NCBI GenBank assembly: GCA_015059485.1
Contig: SVAH01000001.1
Coordinates: 140,104 to 204,103 of the forward strand
Reading direction: 5' to 3'
Origin: Bacillota bacterium
GTDB lineage: Bacteria; Bacillota_I; Bacilli_A; RF39; UBA660
Length of the DNA stretch: 64,000 nucleotides
Made by a program: the position numbers and the translations under genes. Shown one piece after another: positions 468-57,861 of the stretch. Every line of letters starts with the position of its first letter. The first letter of the stretch is position 1. The notes below the pieces were generated by a model. The model worked only from the letters and a program-made list of their open reading frames with translations, made no database searches and had not been told where the DNA came from.

Positions 468-490
468 ATAATCACCACTACAATATATGA

Positions 491-1096: not shown

Positions 1097-1141
1097 TAAA
1101 AATCACCTAGTAGTATATACTAGATAATTAAATAAAATATG

Positions 1142-1612
1142 TTATCTCAAAAATAAAATATAATAGAATATTATGATTAAACTTAAGCATACAGCTCCGA
1201 TAGAAGGTGCAATCTTTTTAGAAACTTCTTTTGTTTTAACTTTTAAATCCTCTTTGTTATTTTCAATATTAAAAACAGTGTCCTCAATTTTATCTACATA
1301 AATTTTGAAAATATATGTATTTTGTTCTTCGGTTTCTTCATTATAAATTGTAACATATACTAATTTATTTTGAACTAAATTTTCATTATTGGATATGACC
1401 ATTTTATATTTTTCTTCATCATATTCACATTTAATATCTAAAGTATTTGTATTTTTTGAAATGGTAACTGAATAGTAATTATTATATCTATCAAACTTCG
1501 GTTCCATAAGTGCATTGTTTATTATTATGTTTTCAATTAATAATTCTTCATCTGCATAAACATTTGTTATTAATAAAAAAAACATTATAAGTACTAGAAA
1601 TATTTTTTTCAT
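1142..1612 (-). CDS. secreted, C-terminally membrane-anchored protein with cadherin-like beta-sandwich pattern
   Basis: Signal peptide MKKIFLVLIMFFLLITNVYA, C-terminal hydrophobic helix (APSIGAVCLSLIIIFYYILFL). The central L..I.IN...L.P.F....Y.V.I pattern is typical of cadherin-like beta-sandwich domains. Confidence 0.45.
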   Translation of the reverse strand: MKKIFLVLIMFFLLITNVYADEELLIENIIINNALMEPKFDRYNNYYSVTISKNTNTLDIKCEYDEEKYKMVISNNENLVQNKLVYVTIYNEETEEQNTYIFKIYVDKIEDTVFNIENNKEDLKVKTKEVSKKIAPSIGAVCLSLIIIFYYILFLR

Positions 1613-1658
1613 TTAATCACCTAGTATTATAATGTCCAAATTATTAATTTTTAAACTT

Positions 1659-1949
1659 CTATTCAACCATTTCTCGTATTTTATCTAATTCAATAAAACC
1701 AACTGATTGATTTTTATTTTCTCCATTTTCTAAATAAATTAGTGTTGGAATACTCATTACGGCATATTCTTTCGAAAGTTCTGGAAATAAGTCTACATTA
1801 ACTTTGATTATATCAATAAAATCAACTTCTTCTAAAACATTACCCATCATTTTACAAGGACCACACCAATCTGCATAAAAATCTACTAAAACCTTTTTAT
1901 CTTTTACTAAATCTTTAAAATTTTCATTTTCTTCTAAATACTTTATCAT
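1659..1949 (-). CDS. trxA: thioredoxin
   Basis: 96 aa with the WCGPC active site and the typical thioredoxin length. Confidence 0.9.
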   Translation of the reverse strand: MIKYLEENENFKDLVKDKKVLVDFYADWCGPCKMMGNVLEEVDFIDIIKVNVDLFPELSKEYAVMSIPTLIYLENGENKNQSVGFIELDKIREMVE

Positions 1950-1965
1950 AATAATATTTCCTTTC

Positions 1966-2634
1966 TTATTTTATTTTACCATGTTTTATTAAATTATTTA
2001 TATCATTTTCTGAAATTATATCATATTTTTTTAATATTTCTATAGAATCATTATTTTTTGTTTTAATTGATTTGTCATTTTTACCAATTGAACTAATCTT
2101 ATCAAATGCTAAATATGAATTTTTAAATTCTGTAGTCATAGGAGTGTTTTTTAAAATAGTTTTAGAAAAATAACTATCTTTCAAATATTCATGTGAAAAA
2201 CTAAATTGTGAAAATATAAATAGTAGTATAAAAGCAAAAATATATGCTTCAAGAAAACCAAGAACTGTTCCAATTAATTTAGATGGGAGCGTTAAGATTA
2301 TTGAATGATCAACAAGTTTGCTGATAATTCCAGTAATTTTTAATATAATTCCAAGTAAAGCTGTAAATATTGCTAATAAAATTACGAATGCTATGCCTTT
2401 ATATATAAGAATATTGAAGGCAAATATTCCTTTGAATACCCCTTTTAATTTAAATGCTGGTAAATATGTATACATTATTTTAGCGAGTGGATTTTTTAAA
2501 ATCCAAGCAAAGTAAATTACCAAAATTGTACCTACTATATATGCGATTGTTTGAATAGCTCCTCTTTTAAATCCAATAATTGCTCCAGACAACAAAAATA
2601 AAACTATAATTGCGTCAAAAACATTAATAAACAT
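1966..2634 (-). CDS. cvpA: CvpA family membrane protein
   Basis: Polytopic membrane protein starting MFINVFDAIIVLFLLSGAIIGFKRG, as in CvpA/colicin V production proteins. ATG at 2634 preferred over the TTG at 2667 used by the track. Confidence 0.65.
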   Translation of the reverse strand: MFINVFDAIIVLFLLSGAIIGFKRGAIQTIAYIVGTILVIYFAWILKNPLAKIMYTYLPAFKLKGVFKGIFAFNILIYKGIAFVILLAIFTALLGIILKITGIISKLVDHSIILTLPSKLIGTVLGFLEAYIFAFILLFIFSQFSFSHEYLKDSYFSKTILKNTPMTTEFKNSYLAFDKISSIGKNDKSIKTKNNDSIEILKKYDIISENDINNLIKHGKIK

Positions 2635-2726
2635 ACTACACCTACTTTCTATAACAATTATATCCAAAAAATAATGAAAAATAAAGAAAATTATGATAAA
2701 ATTTTTAGTGAAGGACGTGAGATAAT

Positions 2727-3686
2727 ATGGTTATTGTTTTTAAAACAAGTAAAAATGTTCAAGAAAAAATGATAGAATTTTATAAAGATTTATATAGACC
2801 AAGTAAACCACCTTACTCAATTTTTCAAGCTCAAAGTGCCGATGTTGTTGTTACTTTATATGAAAGTGGCAAGGTGATGTTTCAAGGAATTTCTGCAGAT
2901 ATTGAAGCAAATATTTGGAAAGACCAAGAAAGACACTTAAACAAACGTGATATCGATAAAGAAATAGAAAAAGCCGATAAGAAGAAGGAAAAGAAAAAAG
3001 AAGAAATAAAAAATGATACTTTAAACTTGAGAAATATTTCTGCTATTGGTAGCGATGAGGTTGGAACTGGAGACTTTTATGGTCCAATAGTTGTAACAGC
3101 ATGCTTTGTTTCAAAAGAAAATGAAATTGATCTAATTGATATAGGTGTTAAAGATTCTAAACTTTTGGGTGACGAAAAAATTATTGAAATAGCGCCAAAG
3201 ATAATTAAATGTGTAGATTATAAAACATTTTCACTAAATAATAAAGATTTTAATGAGTATACAAAAAAAGGCTATAATATGAATAAAATTAAAGCAGTTT
3301 TACATAATAAAGTTTTAAGTGCTTTGAAAAAAGCACATATAAATGAATATGATAAAATTATAGTAGATCAATTTGCTCCACCTAAAAAATATTTTGAGTA
3401 TTTAGAAGAAGCAAATGATATTGTTAAAGATATTACATTTACTCCTAAGGCAGAAACTAAGTCTATTGCTGTTGCTTGTGCATCTATAATTAGTAGATAT
3501 TTATTTTTAAAAGAAATGGATAAGCTTTCAGATAGTATTGGTCTAACGCTTCCAAAAGGAGCAAATGATGTTGTAGATTCTATAGGTGTTTCAATTGTTA
3601 AAAAATATGGATTTGAAAAATTAAATGAACTATGCAAAAGCAATTTTAAAAATACGGAAAAAATAAAAGAAAAAATGGCTAAATAG
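2727..3686 (+). CDS. rnhC: ribonuclease HIII
   Basis: N-terminal DUF3378-like region plus an RNase HII/HIII core with the DEVGTGDFYGP motif, about 319 aa. Confidence 0.85.
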   Translation: MVIVFKTSKNVQEKMIEFYKDLYRPSKPPYSIFQAQSADVVVTLYESGKVMFQGISADIEANIWKDQERHLNKRDIDKEIEKADKKKEKKKEEIKNDTLNLRNISAIGSDEVGTGDFYGPIVVTACFVSKENEIDLIDIGVKDSKLLGDEKIIEIAPKIIKCVDYKTFSLNNKDFNEYTKKGYNMNKIKAVLHNKVLSALKKAHINEYDKIIVDQFAPPKKYFEYLEEANDIVKDITFTPKAETKSIAVACASIISRYLFLKEMDKLSDSIGLTLPKGANDVVDSIGVSIVKKYGFEKLNELCKSNFKNTEKIKEKMAK

Positions 3687-3693
3687 CCATTTT

Positions 3694-4632
3694 TTATAAT
3701 AGTTTTAACATAAAGATTTTTAACAGTGAATATTTATCAAAATAAACACTTTTTATTTGAAGATCACATTCATTTAACACTAACAAATTATTCTCTAATT
3801 CATTATAATTATAGTTGAAACTATTTTTTAATATTTTTTCCGTTTGCCAATCTTGTAGTTTCAATTCTTTTGAAATTGTATTTAAAGATTTATTTTCTTC
3901 GTAAAGTTGTTTTGTAAAATACATTAGTCTATATTCTCTAGCAAGCAAATTTATTAATGATATAGGTTCTACTTTCAAAATATTAAAGTCGTCTAACATT
4001 TTAAATGCTTTTTTTAAATCTCTATTTATTATATACTCTACAAATTTAAAATTATTTTCATCAATACTTTTAGATACTATTTTTTTGACATCTTCAAATT
4101 CAAATTTGCATGGTGCATTATAATATAATTTCAATTTTTCTAATTCATTATATATTAGATCATAATTATTTAAGCAATTATTTATTAAATAATTTATACT
4201 ATCAAGATCTATTGTATAGCCGTCATTTTTTACTATAGTCCTTATTTTATCTTGTAAATCTGAAAATTTTAATTTTTCAATATTGATTAGTTTGTATTTT
4301 TCTTTTATTTCCTTAGTAATTTTTTTTCGCATATCTGCTTTGCCGTTATATGTAAATATTAGAACAGTATTTTCGTTAGGATTTTCTATATATTTTAAAA
4401 GTAATTCATTATTTGTTTTGTTTTCTTTATCGTTGCCAAACATATAAGAATTTTTTGCAATAATTACTCTTTTTTCATTGAAAAGAGAAAGATAACTTGC
4501 TTCGTTTAATAACTCTTCTAAGGATATTATATTTAAATCAAATTTTTCGATATTTATCAGATTTTTAGTTATTTTTTTTATTTCTTCATCAATCAACCTA
4601 ATGCTTTCAGATACAATTAAATATATATTCAT
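3694..4632 (-). CDS. holA: DNA polymerase III delta subunit
   Basis: 312 aa, family-level resemblance to HolA (N-terminal Rossmann-like region, C-terminal helical region). Sits in the comE-holA neighbourhood common in Bacilli. Confidence 0.7.
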   Translation of the reverse strand: MNIYLIVSESIRLIDEEIKKITKNLINIEKFDLNIISLEELLNEASYLSLFNEKRVIIAKNSYMFGNDKENKTNNELLLKYIENPNENTVLIFTYNGKADMRKKITKEIKEKYKLINIEKLKFSDLQDKIRTIVKNDGYTIDLDSINYLINNCLNNYDLIYNELEKLKLYYNAPCKFEFEDVKKIVSKSIDENNFKFVEYIINRDLKKAFKMLDDFNILKVEPISLINLLAREYRLMYFTKQLYEENKSLNTISKELKLQDWQTEKILKNSFNYNYNELENNLLVLNECDLQIKSVYFDKYSLLKIFMLKLL

Positions 4633-8478: not shown

Positions 8479-10497
8479 CTATGGACTACAAGTCTCAATC
8501 TTTAATTTATTATTTTTTATCTTAAACATAATACTACCGTCCACGTCTGTTCTGTAAATTTTTGATTCTTTCAAGTTTTCTAACGCTTCTTTATTTGGAT
8601 GACCATATCTGTTATTTTTACCAACTGATATAACACTATATTTAGGATCTATCTCATCTATAAACTCTTTGCTACTACTTGTCTTAGATCCATGATGTCC
8701 AACTTTTAATACGTCTATATCTGGTAGATTATATTTATTCATTATTTCATTTTCAGTAGTTGTAGATGCATCCCCCATAAACATAAATTTATAACCATTA
8801 AGTTCTGTATAAATGACATTACTATTATCATTTTCATTATCATATTCTTTTGTTTGTAAAAAATATAATTTATTTCTATCAATATTTAATTCTTTAATAC
8901 ACGAATAATATTTTATTTTTTTCTTATCTAGTACTTTTATTAATTCATTCTCTAAATCATTAATTTCACCACAATTAAATATTACTTTCTCTACTTTAAA
9001 ATTATTTGCTAGATTAATAGCTTCTCCCATATGATCGTAATCTCCATGTGTTAGAATTAAATAATCTATTTTCGATTTTCCAAGGCTTTTTAAATAATTT
9101 ATTAAACTAATACTAATGCTAAATTCCTTTTTTTTCACTTTCCACTTTTCTTTTTTATTGAATGAAATTTTTCCACCAGTATCAATCACAATAGATTTAT
9201 TGTTTATATCTATCAATATGCTATCACCTTGTTCTACGTTTAAATAACTTACAAAATTATTATTAAAATAAAATCTGCATTTAGATACTAAAACTAAGAA
9301 TACTATTACAAAAAAATATCTTTTTTTCTTACAAATGGAATAAAAATATAATGTAATATAATATAAAATAATAAGAATTATTGTTGGTTTTCCAATAATA
9401 ATATTTATTTTAAAAACAGTTAGAAGTTTATTTAGTGATTCAAAAATGTTTATAAGGATTACTACAATGTTATTAATAGGTAAAATTAATGAAAATAATA
9501 ATAACGGAAAAAATATAATTGAAATAAATGGCACTATAATAATATTTATAATAATTGATAAGAAATTAACTTCGTAATTATTATAAAGAGTTATTGGCAA
9601 AGATAATATAAATGCATAAATTGATAATAAAAAAATATTTTTGGGTTTTAATAATAATAAACCTGCTGTAATTATAAATGAATATTGAAAAACTGTATCA
9701 AAAATTATGTATGGGTTAATGCATGACAATATTAATGCAGTAAATAAAAGAATTACTATATTTGAAAAAGAATTAATAAATTTTATCTTCTTCAATGTAT
9801 AAAATATAGTAACTCTTAATACAGATGGTGTAAGCATAACTAAGAATGAATAAAAGAATAAGATTATTATTATTATATAATCATTAATTCTAAATTTTTT
9901 TAGAATTAAAATAATAATAGATATATGCATGCCAGAAATGGCAAATAAATGCGTTATACCATTAGTTTTATATAAATCATAAACATCACTATCTAAATAC
10001 TGCTTATCGCCGAAAATAAACATATAATAGTACTCATTTCTTCTTTTTTTAATAATAAATTTAGAAAAAAAATTTCTTATCTTATAAAAAATATTACATT
10101 TTTTGTTTAATTTATAATTTGTTGTATTCATGATAAGATTAATGTTTTTGTATTTTAAATATTTTTTATAATTAAAATTATTAGGTATTGTATTATTACT
10201 AGGCACTTCTAATTTACCTCTAAGATAAATTTTAGAACCTAACACAATATTATTATATAGATACTTTTTTTCTTTATACGTTTTAATACGATAAGTAGCT
10301 ATTATTCTTTCTTTTCCTTTAACTTGCAGTGTTAATTTATCACCATCAATTTTATAATATTCAATAGTTCCATAAAAGTCATTTGAATTTATATTTGAAT
10401 TTCGATATCTAAATAATAATTTAAATATAATTATAAGTACAAATACAAGAATAACACTACAAAGAAATATTATCTTTGATTTTTTCAAATAATGCAT
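8479..10497 (-). CDS. comEC: DNA internalization competence protein ComEC/Rec2
   Basis: N-terminal OB-like region, polytopic competence domain, C-terminal metallo-beta-lactamase domain (LTHGDYDHMGEA ... VGHHGSKTSS). The start may instead be TTG 9 nt downstream. Confidence 0.9.
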   Translation of the reverse strand: MHYLKKSKIIFLCSVILVFVLIIIFKLLFRYRNSNINSNDFYGTIEYYKIDGDKLTLQVKGKERIIATYRIKTYKEKKYLYNNIVLGSKIYLRGKLEVPSNNTIPNNFNYKKYLKYKNINLIMNTTNYKLNKKCNIFYKIRNFFSKFIIKKRRNEYYYMFIFGDKQYLDSDVYDLYKTNGITHLFAISGMHISIIILILKKFRINDYIIIIILFFYSFLVMLTPSVLRVTIFYTLKKIKFINSFSNIVILLFTALILSCINPYIIFDTVFQYSFIITAGLLLLKPKNIFLLSIYAFILSLPITLYNNYEVNFLSIIINIIIVPFISIIFFPLLLFSLILPINNIVVILINIFESLNKLLTVFKINIIIGKPTIILIILYYITLYFYSICKKKRYFFVIVFLVLVSKCRFYFNNNFVSYLNVEQGDSILIDINNKSIVIDTGGKISFNKKEKWKVKKKEFSISISLINYLKSLGKSKIDYLILTHGDYDHMGEAINLANNFKVEKVIFNCGEINDLENELIKVLDKKKIKYYSCIKELNIDRNKLYFLQTKEYDNENDNSNVIYTELNGYKFMFMGDASTTTENEIMNKYNLPDIDVLKVGHHGSKTSSSKEFIDEIDPKYSVISVGKNNRYGHPNKEALENLKESKIYRTDVDGSIMFKIKNNKLKIETCSP

Positions 10498-11209
10498 CTC
10501 CTATCCCTGAAACATTTTTTATTTCTTCAATATTCTTAAATCCATTATTTTTTTCACGATATTCAATAATTGCAATAGCTTTTGATTCTCCAACGCCGGG
10601 AAGAGTCATTAACTTTTCTTTTGACGATGTATTAAGTGATACTATTGTATTATCCTCTATATTAGTATTACTTATATTATTTGTACTTTCTTCATTATCT
10701 GTGATTATAGCATTAATATCATTTCCATCAATTTTAGTTATTGCATTTTCACTACATTTTTCAACATTAATATTTTTGCATACACATTCACTAATTTCAT
10801 GATTATCTTTCTTTTTTAACTCATTTTTATTTGCAATCCTAATAACCATTTGATCTTCAAGTTTTCTACTTAAATTTATATTATCAGTTGTTGCATTTTT
10901 AGCAAGTCCACCTGCAATATTTATTAAATCAGATACATTTGCACCATTTTTAATTTCATAAACATTAGGTTTTTTTACGAAACCTTTTATATCCACTTTT
11001 ATCGTATTTTTTACATTCTCATCCCTTACATTTGCATCATTATTTTCGTTAATAGTAATTTTTGAAGACTGATTTTTGGAAATGCTTACATTTTCTTTTT
11101 TTATTACGTCTTTATATATTAAAAAACAAATGCCACTAATCATAAATATTAATAATAATGTACATATAATATTAAAATAATAATCAAATAATTCTTTTAA
11201 TTTGTTCAA
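10457..11209 (-). CDS. comEA: competence protein ComEA (DNA receptor)
   Basis: N-terminal TM helix, SLBB-like VDIKGFVKKPNVYEIKNGANVSDLINIAGG, C-terminal helix-hairpin-helix LMTLPGVGESKAIAIIEYRE...SGIGDALFEKI. TTG start 8 nt after GGAGG preferred over the track GTG. Confidence 0.85.
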   Translation of the reverse strand: MNKLKELFDYYFNIICTLLLIFMISGICFLIYKDVIKKENVSISKNQSSKITINENNDANVRDENVKNTIKVDIKGFVKKPNVYEIKNGANVSDLINIAGGLAKNATTDNINLSRKLEDQMVIRIANKNELKKKDNHEISECVCKNINVEKCSENAITKIDGNDINAIITDNEESTNNISNTNIEDNTIVSLNTSSKEKLMTLPGVGESKAIAIIEYREKNNGFKNIEEIKNVSGIGDALFEKIKDNISL

Positions 11210-11255
11210 ATTAATCACCTCCTTTTTTTAGTTTTTTTTGAAGGGGTTATTTTAC

Positions 11256-11295
11256 CCCTTCTACTAGTAATATTACAAAAAAGTTTGCAATTTCC
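11256..11295 (-). promoter_or_regulatory. 40-nt conserved upstream element, copy 1 (upstream of comEA-comEC)
   Basis: Minus-strand reading GGAAATTGCAAACTTTTTTGTAATATTACTAGTAGAAGGG. It is 37/40 identical to 44138..44177 upstream of the bacteriocin-type ABC exporter. Confidence 0.55.
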
Positions 11296-11358
11296 TTTTT
11301 TTTCAGTGAAATTTATCAAAAAAATTATTTTTCAAATAAAAAAAAGATGTTTCCATCC

Positions 11359-19069: not shown

Positions 19070-20089
19070 TTAATAATCAATATCTGATAGAGGTACTTCT
19101 ATCGCTGGTCTTGCATAGTTCATAGATGTGACAGAATCATATGAAACATTTGAACTATAGGTATCTATATCAAATGCTGAATCATTTCTTCCATCAACTC
19201 CTGATTCAAGCCATATGTAATAAACAGAATTTGATGAATTACTGTAATTACTATCTTCAAGTAAGAAATTGCAAGAATATGAAAGCGGACCACCTGAATC
19301 CATAACGCCAACAGAATTATAACTAACAACTTGTGCAGGTATTGAACATCCAGCACTAACTTCTTGGTATGTTAATAATCTCGAAGCATAACCTGAATAA
19401 CTAAAGTTCAATTTTAATATGTTACCGGAACTATCCGTAATATGCCCAGATCTTATTTCTGGTGCATTTTTCCATTGTGTGGTATTATAAAGTTCATTTA
19501 AAGCATATTGTGGTCCATACGATGTATTACCATAATTGTTATAAGAAATATGGCCAGAAGAAAGACGATAAGTGTTACTTGTTTTAGCATATGCTAAAAC
19601 TGCAATATTTGAATCTGCTCTCATATGTCCATTATTCATAGTAGATACATAATAAAATCTTTCAGAATCGCTTTCATAATGTCCATTACCATTTACATCG
19701 CAATCAAACGCATCTCCAGCTTTTAAAGTCCCAGCAGTAGTTGAAATATTTCCATATGTTATAGTATCTCCATGACCATAAGTTTTATAATTATTTTGTA
19801 CGTGGCATGCACTTCCTGTCATACAAGTTTCAGTATGCAATGTTGATGTAGATGCCCTTTTACATAGTTTTTTTTCCGTACATGTATAACCTTCTGGACA
19901 TCTACTCTTACATTCTTGTGAAAGATTTAATAATTCAGTTAATGCACCATTAACTGTAGTTTCACTAGTTGCACTATTAGAATATAAAACTTGCTCAGAT
20001 GGAACGCTTACTGCATATGCTGCCATAGTAATTCCAAGTATAATACCCGTTAATATTCCAAATATCATTTTTGAAGATATTTTTTTCAT
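19070..20089 (-). CDS. secreted Cys-rich lectin-like protein, paralog 1
   Basis: Sec signal peptide (cleavage about AYA|VS). Shares CPEGYTCTEK...LHTETC...ITYGN...GDAFDCDVNG...RFYYVSTM...ARLLTYQEV...FLLE...WLE...RPAIEVPLSDIDY with the adjacent gene. Confidence 0.7.
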   Translation of the reverse strand: MKKISSKMIFGILTGIILGITMAAYAVSVPSEQVLYSNSATSETTVNGALTELLNLSQECKSRCPEGYTCTEKKLCKRASTSTLHTETCMTGSACHVQNNYKTYGHGDTITYGNISTTAGTLKAGDAFDCDVNGNGHYESDSERFYYVSTMNNGHMRADSNIAVLAYAKTSNTYRLSSGHISYNNYGNTSYGPQYALNELYNTTQWKNAPEIRSGHITDSSGNILKLNFSYSGYASRLLTYQEVSAGCSIPAQVVSYNSVGVMDSGGPLSYSCNFLLEDSNYSNSSNSVYYIWLESGVDGRNDSAFDIDTYSSNVSYDSVTSMNYARPAIEVPLSDIDY

Positions 20090-20125: not shown

Positions 20126-21163
20126 TCAATAGTCTATATCCTCTAGTGGAACCTCAATTGCGGGGCGAACACCACAGTAGAGAGAGTTGCTGACGGCAGA
20201 GCCGCCGTTCACGTTACGGTAGTTCGAGTAGACTGACCAAGCGCGGTCAGTGCGACTCTCGACCGGAGTCTCTAGCCAAGGTCCGGTTGTTGAATTTGAA
20301 GAATTGGTATATTTAGTATTTTCTAATAAAAATTCACATTTACTATATATTCCATTATTTACCCCTAGATTAATTGAACCATTATAACACCCGTTATATA
20401 CTTCTTGATACGTTAAAAGTCTTGCTTGTGCTCTACCATAGTCAAAATCTACAACAGGTGTTCCAATTTCGTCAGTTATAAGTCTTGTAGATGATTTTAA
20501 ACTTACTCCTGGCCAACTAACTGGTGCATTTCCAGGTAAGTGTTTTTTTGCTGTAACAGGGCCTTTAGTATTCGAATTAGATGACAAACCAGTATCTGCC
20601 ATTGTTGCCCATGCTACACCTGTTGTATTATTATGTCCATTTACTACATTAGTATAATACACTAATACTGCATAGTTACTATCATTTACATCACTATGAC
20701 CTGCCATTGTTGATACATAATAGAATCTTGCTGCTTCTCCATTAACCATGTATGATCCATCACCCATTACATCGCAATCAAATGCATCACCTGTTGCTAA
20801 TGTTCCCTTAGTTCCTACATTACCATATGTTATAGAATGTCCATTTCCTCTTGTTTCTGCACAATGACCATATGATTGATTACATGTTTCTGTATGCAAC
20901 TCTGATGAATGCCCTACTCTTTTACATATTGGTCTTTTTTCTGTACACTCATATCCATCTGGGCATGTAGTTCCACATGTGTGTGCTGTATCAATAAGTT
21001 CGTCAAGAGTCCCTTTTACTGTCGTTTGACTAGTTAATGTGTGAGAATATGTTACTTCATTAGAAGTAATACTATTGGCGTATACTGCTATTGATATTCC
21101 TATTATTAAGCCTGCTATTGTACCAATTGAATAATCTTTAAAAAATTTTAATAATTTTTTCAT
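20126..21163 (-). CDS. secreted Cys-rich lectin-like protein, paralog 2, with GC-rich variable-region-like C-terminus
   Basis: Signal peptide (about VYA|NS), same conserved blocks as paralog 1. The C-terminal YWLE..AW.V.....GVRPAIEV pattern resembles DUF1566/C-type-lectin-like ligand-binding folds. Confidence 0.7.
   Translation of the reverse strand: MKKLLKFFKDYSIGTIAGLIIGISIAVYANSITSNEVTYSHTLTSQTTVKGTLDELIDTAHTCGTTCPDGYECTEKRPICKRVGHSSELHTETCNQSYGHCAETRGNGHSITYGNVGTKGTLATGDAFDCDVMGDGSYMVNGEAARFYYVSTMAGHSDVNDSNYAVLVYYTNVVNGHNNTTGVAWATMADTGLSSNSNTKGPVTAKKHLPGNAPVSWPGVSLKSSTRLITDEIGTPVVDFDYGRAQARLLTYQEVYNGCYNGSINLGVNNGIYSKCEFLLENTKYTNSSNSTTGPWLETPVESRTDRAWSVYSNYRNVNGGSAVSNSLYCGVRPAIEVPLEDIDY
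20129..20287 (-). other. GC-rich NNC-codon patch (candidate DGR variable region plus IMH)
   Basis: Abrupt composition switch. 21 of the 52 terminal sense codons end in C (AAC x4, TAC x3, GTC x3, CGC x3, GGC x2...), whereas the homologous stretch of paralog 1 uses ordinary AT-rich codons. Confidence 0.5.
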
Positions 21164-21202: not shown

Positions 21203-21970
21203 TTAAAATAAATAAAATAATTTAACAATATTGTAAAATTTATCATAGTATAAAAATACTATAAATAAAGACGAAACAATGAATGGTCCAAATGGAACTT
21301 CATTATCTTTATTTAGTACAATTGTTGCAAGTGCATAAGGAAGTGCTAAGAAAGTGGAAAATATTAAAGATACCATAGATACTTGTATTCCAAGCACCAT
21401 TCCTATTACAAATGATAATTTAATGTCTCCTCCACCTAGCGCCTCTCGTTTATATATTTTTTTACCAATAAATCCTACGAGTAACATTATTATAAAAACC
21501 ACTAAGCCATATATTAATGATAAAAACGCTGTACTCCAATTATAATATACTACTTTTAATATAAAAATTAAAATAGATGATATTATAAGTGGCGAATCAA
21601 GTATTATCATGAATTTAAAATCACTTATAAATATTAAGATACTTAGTGAAGATAAGATTAAAGATATAAAAAACTCATAGGATATTCCAAAATATAAATA
21701 GCTAAATAAAAATAATATACCACAAGAAAGCTCCGATAAAAATAAATCATAAGGTAAATCATGATGACAATGTCTACATTTTCCTTTTTGCAATAAGTAT
21801 GAAAGAAGCGGTATATTTTCATACCACTTTAAAGGCGTATTACAATAATCACAATGACTCCCTGGTTTAACTATAGATTTATTTTGTGGCAATCTTAAGG
21901 CAACCACATTATAAAACGATCCCATAATTATTCCAAATATGAATAAAATAATTGAAAAATAAATAACCAT
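21203..21970 (-). CDS. pilD: prepilin peptidase (A24 family)
   Basis: N-terminal CDYC...CRHC zinc-binding pairs, polytopic membrane protein, GGGDIKL catalytic Asp motif. Confidence 0.85.
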   Translation of the reverse strand: MVIYFSIILFIFGIIMGSFYNVVALRLPQNKSIVKPGSHCDYCNTPLKWYENIPLLSYLLQKGKCRHCHHDLPYDLFLSELSCGILFLFSYLYFGISYEFFISLILSSLSILIFISDFKFMIILDSPLIISSILIFILKVVYYNWSTAFLSLIYGLVVFIIMLLVGFIGKKIYKREALGGGDIKLSFVIGMVLGIQVSMVSLIFSTFLALPYALATIVLNKDNEVPFGPFIVSSLFIVFLYYDKFYNIVKLFYLF

Positions 21971-21973
21971 TTT

Positions 21974-23551
21974 TTAACCTACACTTCCCATTAAATTAAA
22001 CATCGGAATAACAACTGCTAAAATAATTGTTCCTACAACAACTGCTAAGCCTGCAATTAAAACTGGTTCAATAAAACTTTTCAAAGCCCCTACAATACTT
22101 CTATGTTGCTCTGAATAATAATCTGATACTGTTTGCATCATCTCTGCAAGTTCTCCAGTTGATTCACCAGTAACAATCATATAATATGCTACATCAGGAA
22201 CAGCCCATTGTTTTTTAAAGGCATCTGATATTTTTCTACCTTCAATAATATTATTAATAGTTTTAATCATTATTTCTTTATATATTTCATTAGTTGTTAT
22301 CTTACTTAGAATCTCAACACTAGTTGTAATAAATACATTATTTCTTAAAAGTGACGCAAACGTTTTTGTAAATATTGTCAATTCATTATATATAATTACG
22401 CTTTTGACAACAGGTAAATGCATAAAAAATACTTGCATTGACTTTCTAACTGCTTTAACGTTTTTATACATCCATATTATTAATATTACTATTCCTAGAA
22501 CTACTCCTAGTACAACAAGCGCATTGGCCCTTAAAAAATTACTAGATTCAAGCACAAATCTTGTTAACCCAGCAACAGGGGCATTTGATTGAGCATATAT
22601 TTTTTCAAATTGAGGAATGACATATAATAAAATAAATGTTACAACACCTATAGCAAAAACACTTACTATTGCAGGATATGAAATAGCGCTAATCATTTCT
22701 TTACGAGTTGCTTCTACTTCTTCATAATAATTAGCCATATCTGTTAGAGTTTCTTCAATATTTCCTGTTGCTTCTGCAGCTTTAACCATATTAACTAGTA
22801 AACTTGGAAACATCTTTCCTTGTTTTTCTAGACAGCTTGAAAATGCTTCTCCATTCGTAAGCTCATAAGTTATAGCCTGAAAAATTCTTTTTTGAGTTGG
22901 TTTTTTATTCATTTGGTTTGAAAGAATTCTAATTGCTTCTGCAAGTGGAATACCAGCTTTTAAATATGTTGATAACTGACTTAATAAAAATATTAAATCT
23001 TTATTAGACATTTTATTTCCTATAATAGATGTTTCACCATATAATTTTTGTAAAAGAGGACTTGTTTCAATTTTATATACATCATATCCTTCACTTATTA
23101 AGAATGTATATACATCTAATTTAGAATAAGCATAAAATACTTGATTTACTACTTTACCATCAGTATCTCTAGCAGTATATTTGTATACTACTGCTTTTTC
23201 ACTTCTAACAGATCCTTCATCATTTAAAGTTGAAAGCAATTTTTGTTTTTCTTTTTCATAGTAATCATTTCTACTTTTTACCCAAGGCAGTTTATTATAA
23301 AATTCTTGTCTTTTTTTTCTTTGTTCTTCTTTTAAAATTTCTTCCTTTTCTGAAGATGTTAAAAAACCTTGTGATGCAGTTGAAATTGCTTTGTCAGCAG
23401 TGCCTCCAACTACATTAAAAATATAAAATATCCATTCATATAATATAAATTTAAAACCCTTAAAAGCAAAAATAAATATATATGCAAAAATCATTGTAAA
23501 TGATTCTTCTTTATCATTTTCTACTATAGATTGTGCTTTTACATCATCCAT
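21974..23551 (-). CDS. pilC: type II secretion system F / PilC family platform protein with about 110 aa N-terminal extension
   Basis: Two T2SSF repeats (LSTYLKAGIPLAEAI..., FASLLRNNVFITTSV...). An extra N-terminal TM helix plus a charged segment precedes the usual VYKYTARDTDGK start. Confidence 0.85.
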   Translation of the reverse strand: MDDVKAQSIVENDKEESFTMIFAYIFIFAFKGFKFILYEWIFYIFNVVGGTADKAISTASQGFLTSSEKEEILKEEQRKKRQEFYNKLPWVKSRNDYYEKEKQKLLSTLNDEGSVRSEKAVVYKYTARDTDGKVVNQVFYAYSKLDVYTFLISEGYDVYKIETSPLLQKLYGETSIIGNKMSNKDLIFLLSQLSTYLKAGIPLAEAIRILSNQMNKKPTQKRIFQAITYELTNGEAFSSCLEKQGKMFPSLLVNMVKAAEATGNIEETLTDMANYYEEVEATRKEMISAISYPAIVSVFAIGVVTFILLYVIPQFEKIYAQSNAPVAGLTRFVLESSNFLRANALVVLGVVLGIVILIIWMYKNVKAVRKSMQVFFMHLPVVKSVIIYNELTIFTKTFASLLRNNVFITTSVEILSKITTNEIYKEIMIKTINNIIEGRKISDAFKKQWAVPDVAYYMIVTGESTGELAEMMQTVSDYYSEQHRSIVGALKSFIEPVLIAGLAVVVGTIILAVVIPMFNLMGSVG

Positions 23552-23633: not shown

Positions 23634-25946
23634 TTATCCAAAGATATTATTATACACTTCTATATAATTTGATATTTCTATTATATTTAATGATTTCTTT
23701 ACATCATCTGGAATCATTTTTAAATCTTTATGATTCTTTTTAGGAATAAATATTGTTTTAATATTATTGTTATATGCCCCAATAATTTTTTCTTTAATTC
23801 CTCCAACTTCAAGTACTTCACCGGTAAGTGATAACTCTCCAGTTAAAGCAATTGAATTATTCACTTTTTTATTAATCAAGAGTCCAATTAACGATGTTGT
23901 AATTGCTATACCAGCAGATGGTCCATCTTTTTTTATTGCACCATCTAGCATATGAATATGAAAATCTTTATTTTTAAATATATCTTTTTTAATTCTAAAT
24001 TCATCACTATTAGCTCTAATATAACTTAGTGATACATCAACACTTTCTTTTAGTATATCTCCAAGATGTCCAGTAACTTTTATTTTACCGTCACCATCAT
24101 ACATTACACTTTCAATAGGTGTAATAATACCTCCATATGGTGTATATGCTAAACCATTTACTACTCCAATATTATTATTTTTAGTTACCATATCATAGTT
24201 ATATTTGCAAACTCCTAAATATATTTCTAAATGTTTACTATCTAAATTAACTTTTATTTCATTTTTTGAATGATTACTAGTAATAACTTTTCTTATTATT
24301 TTATCTATTGCTCTTTCTAATTCTCTTACCCCTGCTTCTTTTGTATAATCTCTAATTATATGTCTTATTGTATCAACACTTATTTTTATTTCTTTTGTTT
24401 TTATATCATATTCTTTAAATAACTTGGGTATAATATATTTCTTAGCTATATCGATTTTCTCATTTTCGGTATAACTCGCCATTTCAATTATTTCTAATCT
24501 ATCAAGTAATTCTTCAGGAATGTTATCTTTGTTATTCGCTGTTAAAATAAACATTACCTTGGATAAGTCAAATTCTTCTTCAATATAGTTGTCAACAAAT
24601 ATTTTATTTTGTTCATAATCCAAAATATCTAAAAGAACACTTGCAGGATCACCTTTATAATCTTTCACCATTTTATCAATTTCATCAATCAAGATTATTG
24701 GATTTCTACTTCCACATTTTCTGATGCTTTGAATAATCTTTCCTGGTGATGCTGCAATATACGTTTTTCTATGCCCATTTAATTCAGAACTATCATTTAA
24801 TCCACCAACACTTATTTTCGCAAATTTCTTGTTTAAAGCATTAGCTATTGAGAAAGCAAATGTAGTTTTCCCAACTCCTGGTGGCCCAACTAGACAAATT
24901 ATAGGGCTTTTAATTTCTTTGTTTCTTTTTTTTACAGAAACATATTCTAATATTCTTTCTTTTATTTCTTCTAAACCATAATGAGACTTATCCAAAACTT
25001 TTTTAACATTTATAATATTTTCTTCATCTTTAGTGAGTGTATTCCATGGAAGAGATAGCATGTATTCGATATAATTTCTAGTTATAGTCATATCAGGACT
25101 TAATTCATTTGTAAAATCGTATTTTTTGATTTCACTTATCAATCTATCATGAATATTTTTTGAAATCTTTAATGATTCTAGCTTTTCTAAATAATTATTA
25201 ACTTCTTCACTTTTATCATTAGTTTCTCCTAACTCTTTTTTTATTTGCTTCATCTTTTCTTTTAAAATGAATTCTTTTTGTGAATTTTCAAGTTCATTCG
25301 CCAAATTATCATCAAGTTTTTCATTAAGCATACTAACTTCAACTTCAATTGATAAATCTTTTATTAAATTTCTAGCTCTCTTCAAAGCATTAATTTCTTC
25401 CATATATTCTAATTTTTTTTCAATATTTAATGGAACAAATAATGTTATTTGATCAGTTATTTTATATATATCACTTTCATTTCTAACTGTTGCAAGAATA
25501 CTATTAGAAATAGCTGGATTTAAATCCAGATATTCTTTTAAGACTTCAATTAACTTTCTTTTAGCAGCAAGTATTTCAACTTCACTGAAACGTGGTAAAA
25601 TAATCTCTTTAAAACTGCATTCTAAAATATCAATATCATCTACATTATTAGAATATTCTTCAATTGCAACTCTTTTTAGACCCCTTACTTTAATTTTCAA
25701 ATGTCCATTTGATAATTCAATTTTACTGGTAATTTTACAAACAACTCCAACAAAAGGTAAATCTGTAACTTCAGGTTCTTCTTCCTTTTGATCTTTTGGA
25801 CAAACTACTAAAAGTTCATTTTTGTAATCCTTAGAAGATATCATTACAGTCTTTTTGCTAATTTTATTATTAATATCAAGTTTAACTTCTTGGTTTGGGA
25901 GTAGAACTAATCCTTTAAGTAGCATTACTGGCAATGAACTGTTCAT
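23634..25946 (-). CDS. lon: ATP-dependent Lon protease
   Basis: LON N-domain, AAA+ Walker A GPPGVGKTT, proteolytic KDGPSAG serine motif. ATG 25946 follows a GGAGGGAG RBS. Confidence 0.95.
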   Translation of the reverse strand: MNSSLPVMLLKGLVLLPNQEVKLDINNKISKKTVMISSKDYKNELLVVCPKDQKEEEPEVTDLPFVGVVCKITSKIELSNGHLKIKVRGLKRVAIEEYSNNVDDIDILECSFKEIILPRFSEVEILAAKRKLIEVLKEYLDLNPAISNSILATVRNESDIYKITDQITLFVPLNIEKKLEYMEEINALKRARNLIKDLSIEVEVSMLNEKLDDNLANELENSQKEFILKEKMKQIKKELGETNDKSEEVNNYLEKLESLKISKNIHDRLISEIKKYDFTNELSPDMTITRNYIEYMLSLPWNTLTKDEENIINVKKVLDKSHYGLEEIKERILEYVSVKKRNKEIKSPIICLVGPPGVGKTTFAFSIANALNKKFAKISVGGLNDSSELNGHRKTYIAASPGKIIQSIRKCGSRNPIILIDEIDKMVKDYKGDPASVLLDILDYEQNKIFVDNYIEEEFDLSKVMFILTANNKDNIPEELLDRLEIIEMASYTENEKIDIAKKYIIPKLFKEYDIKTKEIKISVDTIRHIIRDYTKEAGVRELERAIDKIIRKVITSNHSKNEIKVNLDSKHLEIYLGVCKYNYDMVTKNNNIGVVNGLAYTPYGGIITPIESVMYDGDGKIKVTGHLGDILKESVDVSLSYIRANSDEFRIKKDIFKNKDFHIHMLDGAIKKDGPSAGIAITTSLIGLLINKKVNNSIALTGELSLTGEVLEVGGIKEKIIGAYNNNIKTIFIPKKNHKDLKMIPDDVKKSLNIIEISNYIEVYNNIFG

Positions 25947-26225
25947 ATTAACTCCCTCCAATCAATAAAACTTATTATATTTTATTAATATAAATTTGTC
26001 TATAAAAAAACTAATTTTTATTCAAAAATATTTATAAAGTCCCTATTTATCGCTTTTTTACTAATGTCTACTAGTGCGTAAATAGACAGACTTTTACATA
26101 CTAAATTAACTATTTTTTTATTTTTAAATATATTATACACTAAAAGAAATAAGCAAATAATATTAGCTTATTTCTTTTATTTGAGTAAAATTAAATAAAT
26201 ATTAATAAAATTATTTTTTCAGTTA

Positions 26226-26762
26226 TTAGTTTGTTAAAGTTAATGTAGCACTATCGATTGGTAAATTTGAATAATTTGCATCAGTCAATGTTATAGTTCT
26301 TAGTGCTCCTAATGCATTTTGAACCTCTATAGTACTAGTTTGTTCAGTTAATGTTGTATTTTTTACAGTTGCATCAAATTCGTGGTTACCATCTGAAGCA
26401 GTTTGTTTATAATAAATTACTGGTGCACCAGTTTGAGCATATGGAATATTATTGAAAAAAGCATTACCTGATGAATCAGTCGTTATCAAAGAACCATATT
26501 CAGTACCAGTACTGTCTGTCCTTATAAATGTTGCACCTATTACTGGCGTACCTGTCGAGGTTCCATCTTCTGTTACATGTATAGTTAATGTACCAGTTGC
26601 TGATATTGTAAATGCATATGAATCCGTACCGCTTTCAATAGATACACTAGATGGATCAATAGATATATTATCATACCCTGTAGATTCTGCAGTTACAGTA
26701 TAAGTTCCATTTAGTAAATTAGCTGTACCACTACCATTGGTAATAGTTACTGTCTTTGCCAT
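26226..26762 (-). CDS. Thr/Ser/Gly-rich beta-sandwich (Cna-B / carboxypeptidase-regulatory-like) repeat protein, no signal peptide
   Basis: Contains one complete repeat (TLTIHVTEDGTSTGTPVIGATFIRTD...TTDSSGNAFFNNIP...YYKQTASDG...). It is flanked by an N-terminal partial repeat and a C-terminal partial repeat (RTITLTDANYSNLPIDSATLTLTN). Noticeably higher GC than its neighbours. Confidence 0.6.
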   Translation of the reverse strand: MAKTVTITNGSGTANLLNGTYTVTAESTGYDNISIDPSSVSIESGTDSYAFTISATGTLTIHVTEDGTSTGTPVIGATFIRTDSTGTEYGSLITTDSSGNAFFNNIPYAQTGAPVIYYKQTASDGNHEFDATVKNTTLTEQTSTIEVQNALGALRTITLTDANYSNLPIDSATLTLTN

Positions 26763-27100
26763 AAAGTAATCATCCCCTTCATTATAGGCAAATTTTTGTA
26801 GTTTCTATCTGTAAGTAAAAAGGTAATAATTCTGCTTTGGTTTTGATATAAAATACATTTATTAAAATTAAAAATATATTTATCACAATTATTTATGATA
26901 TAAAAATGCTTTTTGATAAAACCTGCATTAGATTTTGCAATTAATTTATATAGAGAGTTCTTTTTTAAACATAATAACATTCTACCGTTATAGGTTTCTT
27001 TTTTACATATAATATTATTGTCTAAATCATATATAATGACACATGCTTGCATAACATCTTTATAACCCAATCCATTGAATATCAATTCTATCTCTTTCAT
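26747..27100 (-). CDS. beta-sandwich repeat protein ending in the same half-domain motif; overlaps the downstream gene by 16 nt
   Basis: The VIIYDLDNN...TYNGRMLL...YKLIAKSNAGF pattern is followed by the C-terminal RIITFLLTDRNYKNLPIMKGMITL. ATG 27100 follows an AGGTGA RBS. Confidence 0.5.
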   Translation of the reverse strand: MKEIELIFNGLGYKDVMQACVIIYDLDNNIICKKETYNGRMLLCLKKNSLYKLIAKSNAGFIKKHFYIINNCDKYIFNFNKCILYQNQSRIITFLLTDRNYKNLPIMKGMITLWQRQ

Positions 27101-27138
27101 CTTTATCACCTTTCAATATATTTTATACACATTAAAAA

Positions 27139-27160
27139 AGATGAATAATAATATTCATCT
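27139..27160 (-). terminator. rho-independent terminator after ORF 27201..27383
   Basis: agatgaata / tattcatct 9-bp stem with a 4-nt loop, followed on the minus strand by tttttaatg. Confidence 0.55.
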
Positions 27161-27200
27161 AAAATTTTATTGATTCTTTATAAATTCATAATTACACAAA

Positions 27201-27383
27201 CTATCTTTTTAAACTTCTTTGGATATCGCCTTCATTTTCAATCAAGTTATTTTTCATTTGTTCTCTTAATTCTAATTGCATTAATTCATAAATTCTTTCT
27301 TTGGATTTAAATAAAACATACGCTTCATAAATACTTAAGCTTTCATATATTCCTTGATGTGACTCAACATAATCTTCTAACAT
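27201..27383 (-). CDS. hypothetical protein (60 aa, helical)
   Basis: ORF 11 nt downstream of the preceding ORF, followed by a terminator. No family recognised. Confidence 0.35.
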   Translation of the reverse strand: MLEDYVESHQGIYESLSIYEAYVLFKSKERIYELMQLELREQMKNNLIENEGDIQRSLKR

Positions 27384-27394
27384 TCCTTTTTCCT

Positions 27395-27769
27395 CTAATT
27401 CAGAAATATGTTTAATGCTATTTGTATTTCATCTGAATCCAATCTAGACTCAACAAGTTCTTTTAATGAACTATACATATATTCAACGACTTGATTATGT
27501 TCTTCTAAAGTACACTTTCTTTTTTGATATTTAACCAATAAATTATGCATTTTCTTTTGTTTTCTAATTCTATGATATTCATCCATTTCAAAATCTGTAA
27601 AAGAAGTAAAATCTTTTTCTTTTATGCTTTCAATGAAAGAAAGCTCCTCTGGTTTTAAATATTCTGTGAATTTTATCCATGTTTCAAGTGCAATATCACT
27701 ATTAGGATAAGAATCACATATTGTTGGATAACTCATTCTGTTATTATTTTTTAATGTAAAATTTACCAT
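27395..27769 (-). CDS. hypothetical protein (124 aa)
   Basis: ORF with a GGAG RBS (aaaaggagaaataatttATG). No family recognised. Confidence 0.4.
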   Translation of the reverse strand: MVNFTLKNNNRMSYPTICDSYPNSDIALETWIKFTEYLKPEELSFIESIKEKDFTSFTDFEMDEYHRIRKQKKMHNLLVKYQKRKCTLEEHNQVVEYMYSSLKELVESRLDSDEIQIALNIFLN

Positions 27770-54773: not shown

Positions 54774-54796
54774 TATTATCCTCCCTTTCTAATTAT

Positions 54797-56900: not shown

Positions 56901-56909
56901 GCTATCCCT

Positions 56910-57636: not shown

Positions 57637-57645
57637 AAAACCACC

Positions 57646-57861
57646 TTAACTTTGCATTTCCTCAATTTCTTTATCTTTACAATACGCATCGCCTGGTTTT
57701 TTACCTTTAACGTATTCCTGATCAACAAGTGAGCATGCTGTTTTAGTTACAGAATCTTTTAAATATCCGCCAAAATAACTAACTAAAGTAATAGTAATAA
57801 CACTAATTATAGCAATTATTAATACATATTCTACTAAAGCTTGTCCTCTGTTATCTATCAT
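57646..57861 (-). CDS. flp: Flp/Fap family pilin
   Basis: MIDNRGQALVEYVLIIAIISVI contains the G/xxxEY Flp processing motif. AGGTGA RBS before ATG 57861. Confidence 0.8.
   Translation of the reverse strand: MIDNRGQALVEYVLIIAIISVITITLVSYFGGYLKDSVTKTACSLVDQEYVKGKKPGDAYCKDKEIEEMQS

Follow-up and report, generated by a model that had tools for sequence, protein, structure and literature searches.

A GC-rich patch in a low-GC Bacilli genome as the probable variable region of a DGR target gene with a remote or lost cassette

We propose that a GC-rich block at positions 20158..20272 (minus strand) of a 64-kb window, by which we mean the whole stretch of 64,000 nucleotides analysed from a Bacillota bacterium, is with high probability the variable region (VR) of a target gene of a diversity-generating retroelement (DGR) whose cassette is remote or lost. 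The gene, hereafter paralog 2 (20126..21163, minus strand; P0001, MBE6160755.1, E7158_00840), is an open reading frame (ORF) of 345 aa whose product begins with a hydrophobic anchor or signal, continues with a Cys-rich part and closes with a DUF6273-like domain. The inferred VR measures ~115 nt with a GC content of 0.60, runs from GAG ACT CCG to CGC CCC GCA A and ends 29 nt short of the stop codon. It lies at the 3' end of the ORF, is within the ~100-150 nt usual for a VR and has NNC codons set between adenine-free scaffold codons (CGC/CGT and not AGA, GTC/GTG and not GTA, GCT, TGG and TCG), with 20 of its 40 core codons ending in C. Since the GC-rich tract extends to 20287, the 5' boundary of the VR can be placed only to within ~+/-15 nt; its 3' boundary has been placed by analogy with proven pairs of template repeat (TR) and VR, which end in ..CCTGCAA.

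The composition of paralog 2 switches abruptly at its 3' end, as the original prediction had claimed. The 140 nt at 20148-20287 have a GC content of 0.593, which is the maximum of the window and lies ~6 SD above its mean (0.250, sd 0.057); the next-highest stretches reach 0.50, within a protein-coding ORF, and 0.47, in a tRNA-Arg gene. The GC3 of the gene rises from ~0.1 to 0.69-0.85 in the patch, the 3' end of which (GGTGTTCGCCCCGCAA) is GC-rich. The codon tally of the original prediction proved exact, with 21 of the 52 terminal sense codons ending in C (AAC x4, TAC x3, GTC x3, CGC x3, GGC x2, GAC x2, and one each of GCC, AGC, CTC and CCC) as against 18 of the 293 codons in the remainder of the gene (Fisher p = 1e-9). 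Synonymous choice changes inside the gene from AGA to CGN, from GTA to GTC/GTG, from AAT to AAC and from TAT to TAC: the VR contains four CGN and no AGA codons for Arg, the remainder seven AGA and no CGC/CGT, and Val is encoded by GTC/GTG inside the VR and by GTA outside it. A tandem paralogue, paralog 1 (P0112; 19070..20089, minus strand; 339 aa, 41% identical to paralog 2), had been noted to use ordinary AT-rich codons in the equivalent region, and does so at 19100..19213 (minus strand; GC 0.35). In this decayed, non-diversified VR equivalent the A-W scaffold has been lost (AF), GVRP has become ARP, and the codon-position pattern in the comparison with paralog 2 is like that of the remaining gene (p = 0.78).

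A signature of templated rewriting can be read from the patch by comparison with other VRs. The VR of paralog 2 shares a DNA scaffold with its relatives P0002 and P0006, which in the closest relatives is identical as GAG ACT CCG .. GCT TGG .. GTC .. TCG .. CGT .. GTG .. GGT GTT CGC CCC GCA. Against P0002, the differences at codon positions 1, 2 and 3 number 16, 13 and 5 in the VR and 58, 49 and 112 in the remainder (p = 6.5e-5), and against P0006 they number 14, 13 and 3 in the VR and 92, 76 and 121 in the remainder (p = 6e-4). The ratio of differences at positions 1 and 2 to those at position 3 is hence 5.8-9.0 in the VR and 1.0-1.4 elsewhere (p = 6.5e-5, 6e-4 and 2e-3 in the comparisons made); positions 1 and 2 vary, and position 3 and the scaffold are fixed, as in templated adenine mutagenesis. 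No such skew is seen in comparisons with decayed copies. This inverted codon-position divergence is the footprint of AAC-templated rewriting. Only 3-5 of ~30 third positions differ between the VR and its relatives, as against 36-40% elsewhere in those genes, which places the rewriting of the VR from a conserved template well after the divergence of those species. The VR of paralog 2 is 40 codons long and those of its nearest relatives 38-39, and therefore no TR that we have seen could be its template.

Paralog 2 belongs to a DGR target family, and targets that are served in trans exist among its relatives. We found 2254 homologues, from uncultured low-GC gut and rumen Bacilli, and homologues at three loci, L006, L080 (UMGS855) and L019 (HGM10839), are demonstrable DGR targets. 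In L006 the VR (10898-11006) and the TR (11230-11338) form a proven pair in which 15 of 16 mismatches fall at TR adenines; the TR is rich in AAC/AAT codons, and beyond it lie the genes for a MutS_I-like protein (MSL; 27.9 bits against a cutoff of 20.6), bAvd and an RVT_1 reverse transcriptase (RT). In UMGS855, the sole TR (L080:534-640) pairs with VRs on the contig that carries it, with 14/15 and 15/21 mismatches at A, and also with VRs on other contigs, L078 (14/17 at A, p = 5e-7) and L070 (19/32), whereas the AT-rich copy L050 shows no A bias against it (p = 0.5). The TR of HGM10839 likewise serves VRs on other contigs. Copies per genome reach nine or more, and an RT lies within 10 kb at four of the 79 GTDB loci of the family, the other 75 having none nearby. 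The GC content of the VR is bimodal over 78 family copies, 31 being at >=0.45 and 35 at <0.40; the window holds one of each, paralog 1 belonging to the AT-rich mode. The 31 GC-rich patches occupy the same C-terminal position in other genomes of ~26% GC. The original prediction of a DGR VR, either a remote target or an orphan, is thus supported by proven homologous targets, TRs acting in trans, the shared scaffold and the A-mutagenesis signature, and we infer that the paralog 2 copy was itself written by such a DGR.

A conserved 3' tail (20129..20157, minus strand; TTGAGGTTCCACTAGAGGATATAGACTAT), which encodes (I)EVPLEDIDY, follows the VR. The 11 nt after the final A of the VR (TTGAGGTTCCA) are the same in the relatives with GC-rich VRs P0002, P0005 and P0006, and in decayed copies (paralog 1 and P0007) this stretch carries differences at synonymous sites. 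The tail is possibly a target-recognition (IMH-like) region. It is unlike the tails of the proven VRs, and no convincing hairpin was found 3' of the patch (DNA MFE -4 kcal/mol).

The window contains no repeat of the patch and no RT, just as the original prediction had noted, nor any Avd, and the same holds for the ~81 kb of contiguous genome covered by the window together with its flanks of 9.5 kb and 7.7 kb, where neither a cognate TR nor, in tblastn searches with the L006 proteins, an RT, Avd or MSL could be found. A search for the TR over 2.95 Mb, which combined repeat finding, blastn at word size 7 and a sliding scan counting only non-adenine conflicts, returned the VR itself as its sole match; the best DGR-compatible template candidate had 21 non-A conflicts, a level of noise. 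Pattern scans anchored on the scaffold gave no matches in JGI metagenomes (scanned twice), GTDB representatives or IMG/VR, not even the VR itself. Applied locally, the pattern does match both the window and the JGI contig L002, and the source genome is therefore absent from those collections. A profile of the RTs from the three cassettes gave 2834 matches; the best 120 of these 2834 are close relatives of the queries only, and among the matches listed none is linked to the source MAG or its samples. Two RT candidates, P0194 and P0204, were rejected as the cognate RT as they come from other samples. Since members of this family usually lie far from any RT, failure to find a cassette close to paralog 2 says little.

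We envisage that a TR rich in AAC/AAT codons would be transcribed and copied into cDNA by a DGR RT and Avd, in this clade also with a MutS-like accessory protein, with misincorporation opposite template adenines, and that the cDNA would replace the 3' end of paralog 2. This would randomise about 20 codons in a DUF6273-like binding domain exposed at the surface, while the adenine-free scaffold codons stay fixed. The cassette would be located more than 30 kb off on one side, more than 50 kb off on the other or on another contig, if it has not been lost, and its TR would be expected to read AAC/AAT where the VR has NNC codons and to be flanked on its 3' side by sequence resembling ACTTTCTYTAAAACT. 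The element is somewhat more likely than not still to be present in the genome, and its loss is a less probable outcome.

The possibility that comes closest to the above is a sub-case of it, differing in the present-day state alone, viz., an orphaned VR that was written by a DGR whose cassette has since been lost or inactivated and that is now slowly decaying ordinary coding sequence. We regard this as possible rather than probable. It would agree with the missing cassette in ~81 kb, with the decay already seen in the tandem paralogue, with the AT-rich or frozen condition of 35 of the 78 family copies and with L019, where the RT is broken across three frames and yet the VRs are still GC-rich. 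Comparisons between strains also fit it. In four of five related clusters the VR is static and the remaining protein variable, whereas the P0011 cluster has 19 variable columns, of which 16 lie within the 33-aa VR (p = 7e-16), an instance of allelic rewriting in nature that is confined to the VR. Among the static VRs at least one is GC-rich (P0037, whose VR equals that of L021, GC 0.56). We therefore rejected a GC-rich VR as proof of current activity, given that VRs can be static across diverged strains. For paralog 2 itself, the public copies (JGI 3300021318, 3300021326, SRR7110455, SRR7109575 and ERZ27247006) are 100% identical across 11-18 kb and represent one strain, and the 90% cluster of the protein has one member. 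Against an orphaned state stand the position of this VR at the top of the GC-rich mode in a genome of 25% GC, the few third-position differences that indicate rewriting after species divergence, and the usual remoteness of the cassette in 75 of 79 loci.

A recombination or gene-conversion tract from a higher-GC homologue, with no link to a retroelement, was the alternative allowed for by the original prediction, and it now appears very unlikely. The abrupt composition boundary and the lack of a template in the window would suit such a tract. However, 31 of the 78 family copies carry such a block in an identical position, and the patch is therefore a property of the family and not a foreign tract. 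Wherever a cassette is visible, the local TR explains the GC-rich block, and an imported orthologous tract would show the reverse of the divergence seen here, which is concentrated at positions 1 and 2 with position 3 fixed. Furthermore, blastn of the patch against phage records found no match, and no similar DNA came from the IMG/VR, JGI and GTDB scans, which did not return the VR itself either. Local selection or chance, through amino-acid composition, expression-linked codon choice or random fluctuation, is scarcely credible, since nothing specific speaks for it beyond a stretch rich in Ser, Asn, Tyr, Gly and Arg, while the ~6 SD excess, the synonymous switches within one gene and the AT-rich codons with which paralog 1 encodes a similar composition speak against it.

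The original prediction had called the protein a lectin, which holds only in the sense of a DUF6273-like domain, matched by structure and below the Pfam cutoff by sequence. An AF2 model of residues 105-345 (mbd833f7bddb7), built from a 105-sequence alignment, has a pLDDT of 89.2, and its top Foldseek match in BFVD is the phage DUF6273 protein A0A8S5VBN9 (E = 1.5e-5, probability 1.00), with several more DUF6273 proteins below it. The model thus resembles the DUF6273 fold, the VR forming the end of this C-terminal domain, and DUF6273 has been described as C-type-lectin-like (PMC11792537, PMC10743442). An earlier model from 32 sequences had a pLDDT of 66.7 and no fold match. In sequence searches, full-length paralog 2 had no match to Pfam DUF6273 (PF19789), and its C-terminal 104 aa scored 18.5 bits (E = 0.0019) against a gathering threshold of 23.5 bits; 10 of 32 family members match PF19789 at E <= 0.01, the best at 7e-5. 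FGE and C-type lectin chains recur among the structural matches, all with E > 2. A PDB profile search returned nothing.

The mechanism proposed here is known, and the gene family is little described. In Bordetella phage BPP-1 (Mtd/Brt/Avd), adenine-specific mutagenic retrohoming with Avd as a partner transfers sequence from an AAC-rich TR to a 3'-terminal VR. This pattern is reproduced in L006, but unlike BPP-1, paralog 2 has no phage context, no 14-bp all-GC IMH, no evident hairpin and no significant fold match to Mtd. The targets of the Treponema denticola DGR are FGE-type C-lectin lipoproteins, whereas the domain of paralog 2 is DUF6273-like and the cassette of its relatives carries an MSL accessory gene. 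The likeness to Treponema denticola, with TvpA and non-adjacent targets, lies in one chromosomal non-phage cassette that diversifies scattered targets and in ligand-binding domains that carry the VR at their 3' ends (PMC5758913, PMC4891356). Distances of more than 100 kb between RT and target are documented, as are MSL cassettes ('Architecture D'; PMC5758913). The L006, L019 and L080 cassettes, with the order target - TR - MutS_I-like small protein - bAvd - RT, match this architecture and share the MSL and avd class with the MSL-containing DGRs of Wu et al. 2018, which include the Legionella DGR (PMC5758913), but differ from them in their uncultured low-GC gut or rumen Bacilli hosts, their target family and their high copy number per genome. 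The phage DUF6273 targets, from Faecalibacterium prophages and the crAss-like 'tentaclins', likewise carry the VR at the C-terminus of that domain (PMC11792537, PMC10743442). They are receptor-binding proteins that adjoin their own cassette, while the family of paralog 2 is cellular and multi-copy, lies among housekeeping and pilus genes and is mostly far from an RT.

Because the mechanism is well known, the gain is one of cataloguing and method and not of concept. Composition alone can reveal a DGR VR whose retroelement lies tens of kilobases off or on another contig, and the GC-rich/AT-rich split among paralogues offers a simple sorting of rewritten from decayed copies. A large metagenome survey states that the distant-target situation is undetectable by its approach (PMC8144416). 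As the family has more than 2000 members, several to a genome and most of them distant from an RT, the DGR target repertoires of gut and rumen Bacilli are probably undercounted.

A wider reading is that one MSL-type DGR cassette serves, in trans, a large family of dispersed paralogues, which are DUF6273-like proteins displayed on or secreted through type IV/Tad pilus machinery, with copies cycling between a 'live' (GC-rich, rewritable) and a 'frozen' (AT-rich, fixed) state. We think this unlikely, though if true it would give the DGR-diversified pilus adhesins of Bacteroides a counterpart in Gram-positive bacteria, and composition would read out the history of each copy. DGRs of Bacteroides are reported to diversify type V pilus adhesins (bioRxiv 10.1101/2024.11.15.621889), and the shared idea is that of a gut-bacterial DGR diversifying pilus-associated adhesive proteins. 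Unlike in Bacteroides, the type IV/Tad link here rests on gene adjacency and on the pilin motif of one copy at L080. The G/FTLIE methylation motif of type IV pilins and pseudopilins (class III signal) is absent throughout the 64-kb window, and a 345-aa protein just beyond it, considered as a third paralogue, is unrelated. As context, an A24 prepilin peptidase (21203..21970, minus strand; PF06750 and PF01478) lies immediately upstream of paralog 2, next to a PilC/GspF-like platform protein (T2SSF; 21974..23551, minus strand; PF00482, E = 1e-49). The synteny with the prepilin peptidase is also seen in L092, and the family copy L080:2815-3960 carries a pilin N-methylation motif (PF07963, 33.7 bits against a cutoff of 21.2).

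Paralog 2 (gene 20126..21163, - strand, 345 aa) has a GC content of about 0.35 over most of its length, rising to 0.59 over the last ~140 nt, in a window with a GC content of 25.0%. The stretch 20148-20287 is the GC maximum among all 140-nt stretches of the window, about 6 SD over the mean, and the next-ranked stretches lie in a protein-coding ORF and at a tRNA-Arg gene. GC3 increases from ~0.1 to 0.69-0.85 at the patch and C-ending codons account for 21 of the 52 terminal codons against 18 of 293 elsewhere in the gene (p = 1e-9), which confirms the abrupt switch described in the original prediction and reproduces its codon tally exactly. Synonymous preference flips within this single gene: the rest of the gene uses AGA seven times for Arg and neither CGC nor CGT, whereas the patch has four CGN codons and no AGA, and likewise Val changes from mostly GTA to GTC or GTG, Asn from mostly AAT to AAC and Tyr from mostly TAT to TAC. 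As also predicted, the alignable C-terminus of the tandem paralog 1 (19070..20089, - strand) is AT-rich (GC 0.35), and neither a repeat of the patch nor a reverse transcriptase (RT) gene was found in the window. An Avd gene is absent from it as well.

The protein (MBE6160755.1, E7158_00840, from a 'Firmicutes bacterium' MAG) has 2254 homologues (E <= 1e-3). Near their C-terminal ends, a block of ~33 residues, hypervariable apart from the fixed residues of A-W-x-V and R-x-V, sits between two strongly conserved segments (..KCKYLMENTKYSSSSLKTYGGWLESP and GVRPAIEVLKSNISY). Full-length paralog 1 and paralog 2 did not match any Pfam family. A confident AlphaFold model of residues 105-345 of paralog 2, built from a deep alignment (pLDDT 89.2, pTM 0.89), has a phage DUF6273-domain protein as its top viral structural match (E = 1.5e-5, prob 1.00), followed by further DUF6273 and DUF1566 proteins, and the IgA peptidase of Thomasclavelia ramosa as its top PDB match (E = 1.1e-3). 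By sequence, the C-terminal 104 aa score 18.5 bits against DUF6273, under the curated cutoff of 23.5, and 10 of 32 family members reach E <= 0.01. In published work, DUF6273 is described as a domain with a C-type-lectin-like fold that DGRs diversify in Firmicutes-associated phages, the variable region (VR) occupying its C-terminal end (PMC10743442, PMC11792537). The description of the two genes as lectin paralogues is thus acceptable only in this loose sense. Among the PDB matches of the model, C-type lectins and formylglycine-generating enzymes appear only at E > 2.

DGR cassettes lie beside homologues of paralog 2. In locus L006, the 3' end (10898-11006) of a gene encoding a 41% identical homologue (P0075) is repeated 330 nt downstream (11230-11338), and 15 of the 16 mismatches fall at adenines of the downstream copy, in which A-free scaffold codons are separated by successive AAC/AAT codons. 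Beyond this repeat come genes for a 138-aa MutS-domain-I protein, for bAvd and for an RVT_1 reverse transcriptase. The same cassette is present in L019 and L080, and its make-up of a MutS-like accessory protein (MSL) and avd matches 'Architecture D' of Wu et al. 2018 (PMC5758913). The paralog 2 family is a DGR target family.

The patch itself carries a corresponding footprint. Its closest relatives, L091 and L092 (53-70% identical, L092 being syntenic with the window behind the prepilin peptidase), share with it a DNA scaffold, GAG ACT CCG .. GCT TGG .. GTC .. TCG .. CGT .. GTG .. GGT GTT CGC CCC GCA, the gaps of which are filled by NNC codons. In a template-free test, differences at codon positions 1, 2 and 3 were compared between the VR (20158-20272) and the rest of paralog 2. 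They number 16, 13 and 5 in the VR and 58, 49 and 112 in the rest against P0002 (p = 6.5e-5), 14, 13 and 3 and 92, 76 and 121 against P0006 (p = 6e-4), and 16, 17 and 9 and 83, 68 and 130 against P0005 (p = 0.002). The corresponding values are 20, 14 and 18 and 105, 91 and 137 against the decayed P0007 (p = 0.45), and 18, 16 and 27 and 131, 98 and 167 against paralog 1 (p = 0.78), in which the equivalent of the VR has decayed. Third positions that stay constant while the first two are scrambled are what AAC-templated adenine mutagenesis produces, and are the opposite of what ordinary divergence or an imported orthologous tract would leave. Third-position differences between the window VR and those of its relatives amount to 10-16%, compared with 36-40% in the rest of the genes, which argues that the VR was rewritten from a conserved template well after the species split. 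The mechanism also accounts for the GC excess: scaffold codons have to be A-free and template adenines are mutated to other bases, so that VRs (0.52-0.65) are more GC-rich than their template repeats (TRs; 0.47), and these far more so than the genome (0.25). The family cassettes, the shared scaffold and the codon-position test thus support the original reading of the patch as a DGR variable region, and it is very probably a DGR-written VR, in a target gene that belongs to a DUF6273-like family and is not adjacent to a cassette. Both the DGR mechanism and remote targets were known before, so the patch adds another case.

A DGR-aware scan, counting conflicts only at non-adenine template positions, covered 2.95 Mb, made up of the window with its two flanks and the 90-odd loci. 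It recovered only the window VR itself and no cognate TR, the next best candidate having 21 conflicts. The window VR comprises 40 codons against 38-39 in the nearest relatives, and therefore none of the TRs seen in the examined relatives can be its template. RT, Avd and MSL are also absent from the flanks, which extend the contiguous sequence beyond the window by 9.5 kb and 7.7 kb, so that the distance from the patch to any cassette exceeds ~30 kb in one direction and ~51 kb in the other. The source genome is absent from the JGI metagenome, GTDB and IMG/VR collections, where pattern scans gave zero matches, the window VR included, and an RT profile search found no match attributable to the source MAG.

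Members of this family are as a rule remote targets. Among the GTDB species representatives, 187 relatives were detected, and the 79 loci kept all belong to MAGs of low GC from gut or rumen, with the labels Bacilli, 'Tenericutes' or Erysipelotrichaceae. Many of these genomes carry several family copies (at least 9 in CAKOXP), and an RT lies within 10 kb of only 4 of the 79 loci. For example, in UMGS855 one TR, L080:534-640 (GC 0.47), can be compared with VRs on the same contig (L080:212-318, 14/15 mismatches at TR adenines, GC 0.56; L080:3822-3928, 15/21, GC 0.53) and on other contigs (L078, 14/17, p = 5e-7, GC 0.54; L070, 19/32, GC 0.55; L050, 15/47 without A bias, p = 0.5, GC 0.34). The same pattern is seen in HGM10839 when L018 and L040 are compared with the L019 TR. 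Non-phage DGRs with targets over 100 kb from the RT have been documented (PMC5758913), and the largest metagenome survey states that remote targets are undetectable by it (PMC8144416). The RT of the HGM10839 cassette (L019:2223-3353) is split over three frames (2223-2567, 2566-2757, 2760-3353), although it shares 96% identity with the intact RT of L006; either an assembly error or recent inactivation of the RT could account for the split. The VRs of this genome are still GC-rich, yet show some non-A mismatches and indels relative to the TR.

Block GC is bimodal among 78 family copies (35 at <0.40, 31 at >= 0.45), and the A-W scaffold is retained in 21 of the 31 GC-rich but only 4 of the 35 AT-rich copies. 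An AT-rich orthologue group from ~16 genomes (L055, L060, L061, L064-L066, L069, L073, L075, L076, L079, L082, L084-L087; ~10640-10768 in most) has an almost invariant former VR (WLETPRNTMSNHGWIIYATARRVHSVEVQRTDVLVGVRPVIEV), as if one sequence had been fixed and then held by purifying selection. L065 also contains a DGR cassette (71-3824) with a different type of target, a 294-aa protein ending ..SWVTNGDGVRAVVNLSS, and a TR-borne ORF (1944-2225); its frozen, AT-rich family copy (9263-10795) lies 6 kb downstream.

Public assemblies of the window locus are all 100% identical over 11-18 kb and therefore sample a single strain. Change in the VR was calibrated on five 90%-identity clusters of relatives. 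In one of them, which has two alleles, the VR holds 16 of the 19 variable columns (p = 7e-16), and rewriting has clearly taken place between strains that are otherwise nearly identical. In the remaining four, the VR is static (0-2 changes) although 8-38 columns elsewhere vary, and at least one static VR is GC-rich (P0037, equal to the L021 VR, GC 0.56). Since one cluster was rewritten and four are static, diversification in the family is episodic, and a GC-rich VR is a sign of past rewriting, not of current activity. If the patch is DGR-written, we lean towards a cassette still being present in the genome; its loss is plausible but less likely.

The 30 nt that follow proven VRs in several genomes are almost identical (TTGAAGTTCTAAAATCTAATAT..). 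Cassettes whose RTs are only 69% identical have a conserved TR 3' flank, ACTTTCTYTAAAACTARGAATTT (L006:11339-11365, L019:1312-1338, L080:641-667), which is a candidate RNA element for priming cDNA synthesis. The tail of the window VR (TTGAGGTTCCACTAGAGG..) differs from that of proven VRs. Over its first 11 nt, however, it matches the nearest relatives with GC-rich VRs exactly, and decayed copies differ there at synonymous sites, suggestive of a putative recognition element. A hairpin was also sought just 3' of the patch, and nothing convincing lies downstream.

Genes for a prepilin peptidase and a PilC-like protein immediately precede paralog 2 and paralog 1, an arrangement repeated in L092 (978-3151), where both tandem paralogues carry GC-rich VRs (0.52 and 0.64) of 38 and 39 codons; the second paralogue is thus GC-rich in L092 whereas its window counterpart, paralog 1, has decayed. 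In L005, a family copy directly follows a Flp/Tad locus. L080:2815-3960 fuses a type IV pilin N-terminus (MKKEKGFTLIELLAVIVLL; PF07963, 33.7 bits, over cutoff), with an N-methylation motif of the genuine pilin type, to the variable C-terminal domain, and therefore some family members may be pilin-like subunits. A pilus role for the window paralogues is only a lead, because the window's own proteins contain no pilin motif. The window also has a complete Flp/Tad-type pilus locus (53071-57861, - strand) with Flp (57646-57861), TadE (57292-57636), a CpaE-like ATPase, T2SSE (54797-56134) and two T2SSF genes (53772-54773 and 53071-53772), after which comes a Flg_new-repeat protein (51629-53008). A run of small unannotated genes (26226-27769, - strand) separates the gene for Lon protease (23634-25961) from tRNA-Thr and includes a 178-aa Thr/Ser-rich protein with weak SpaA/CarboxypepD_reg-like matches (E = 1.8e-4, under cutoff).
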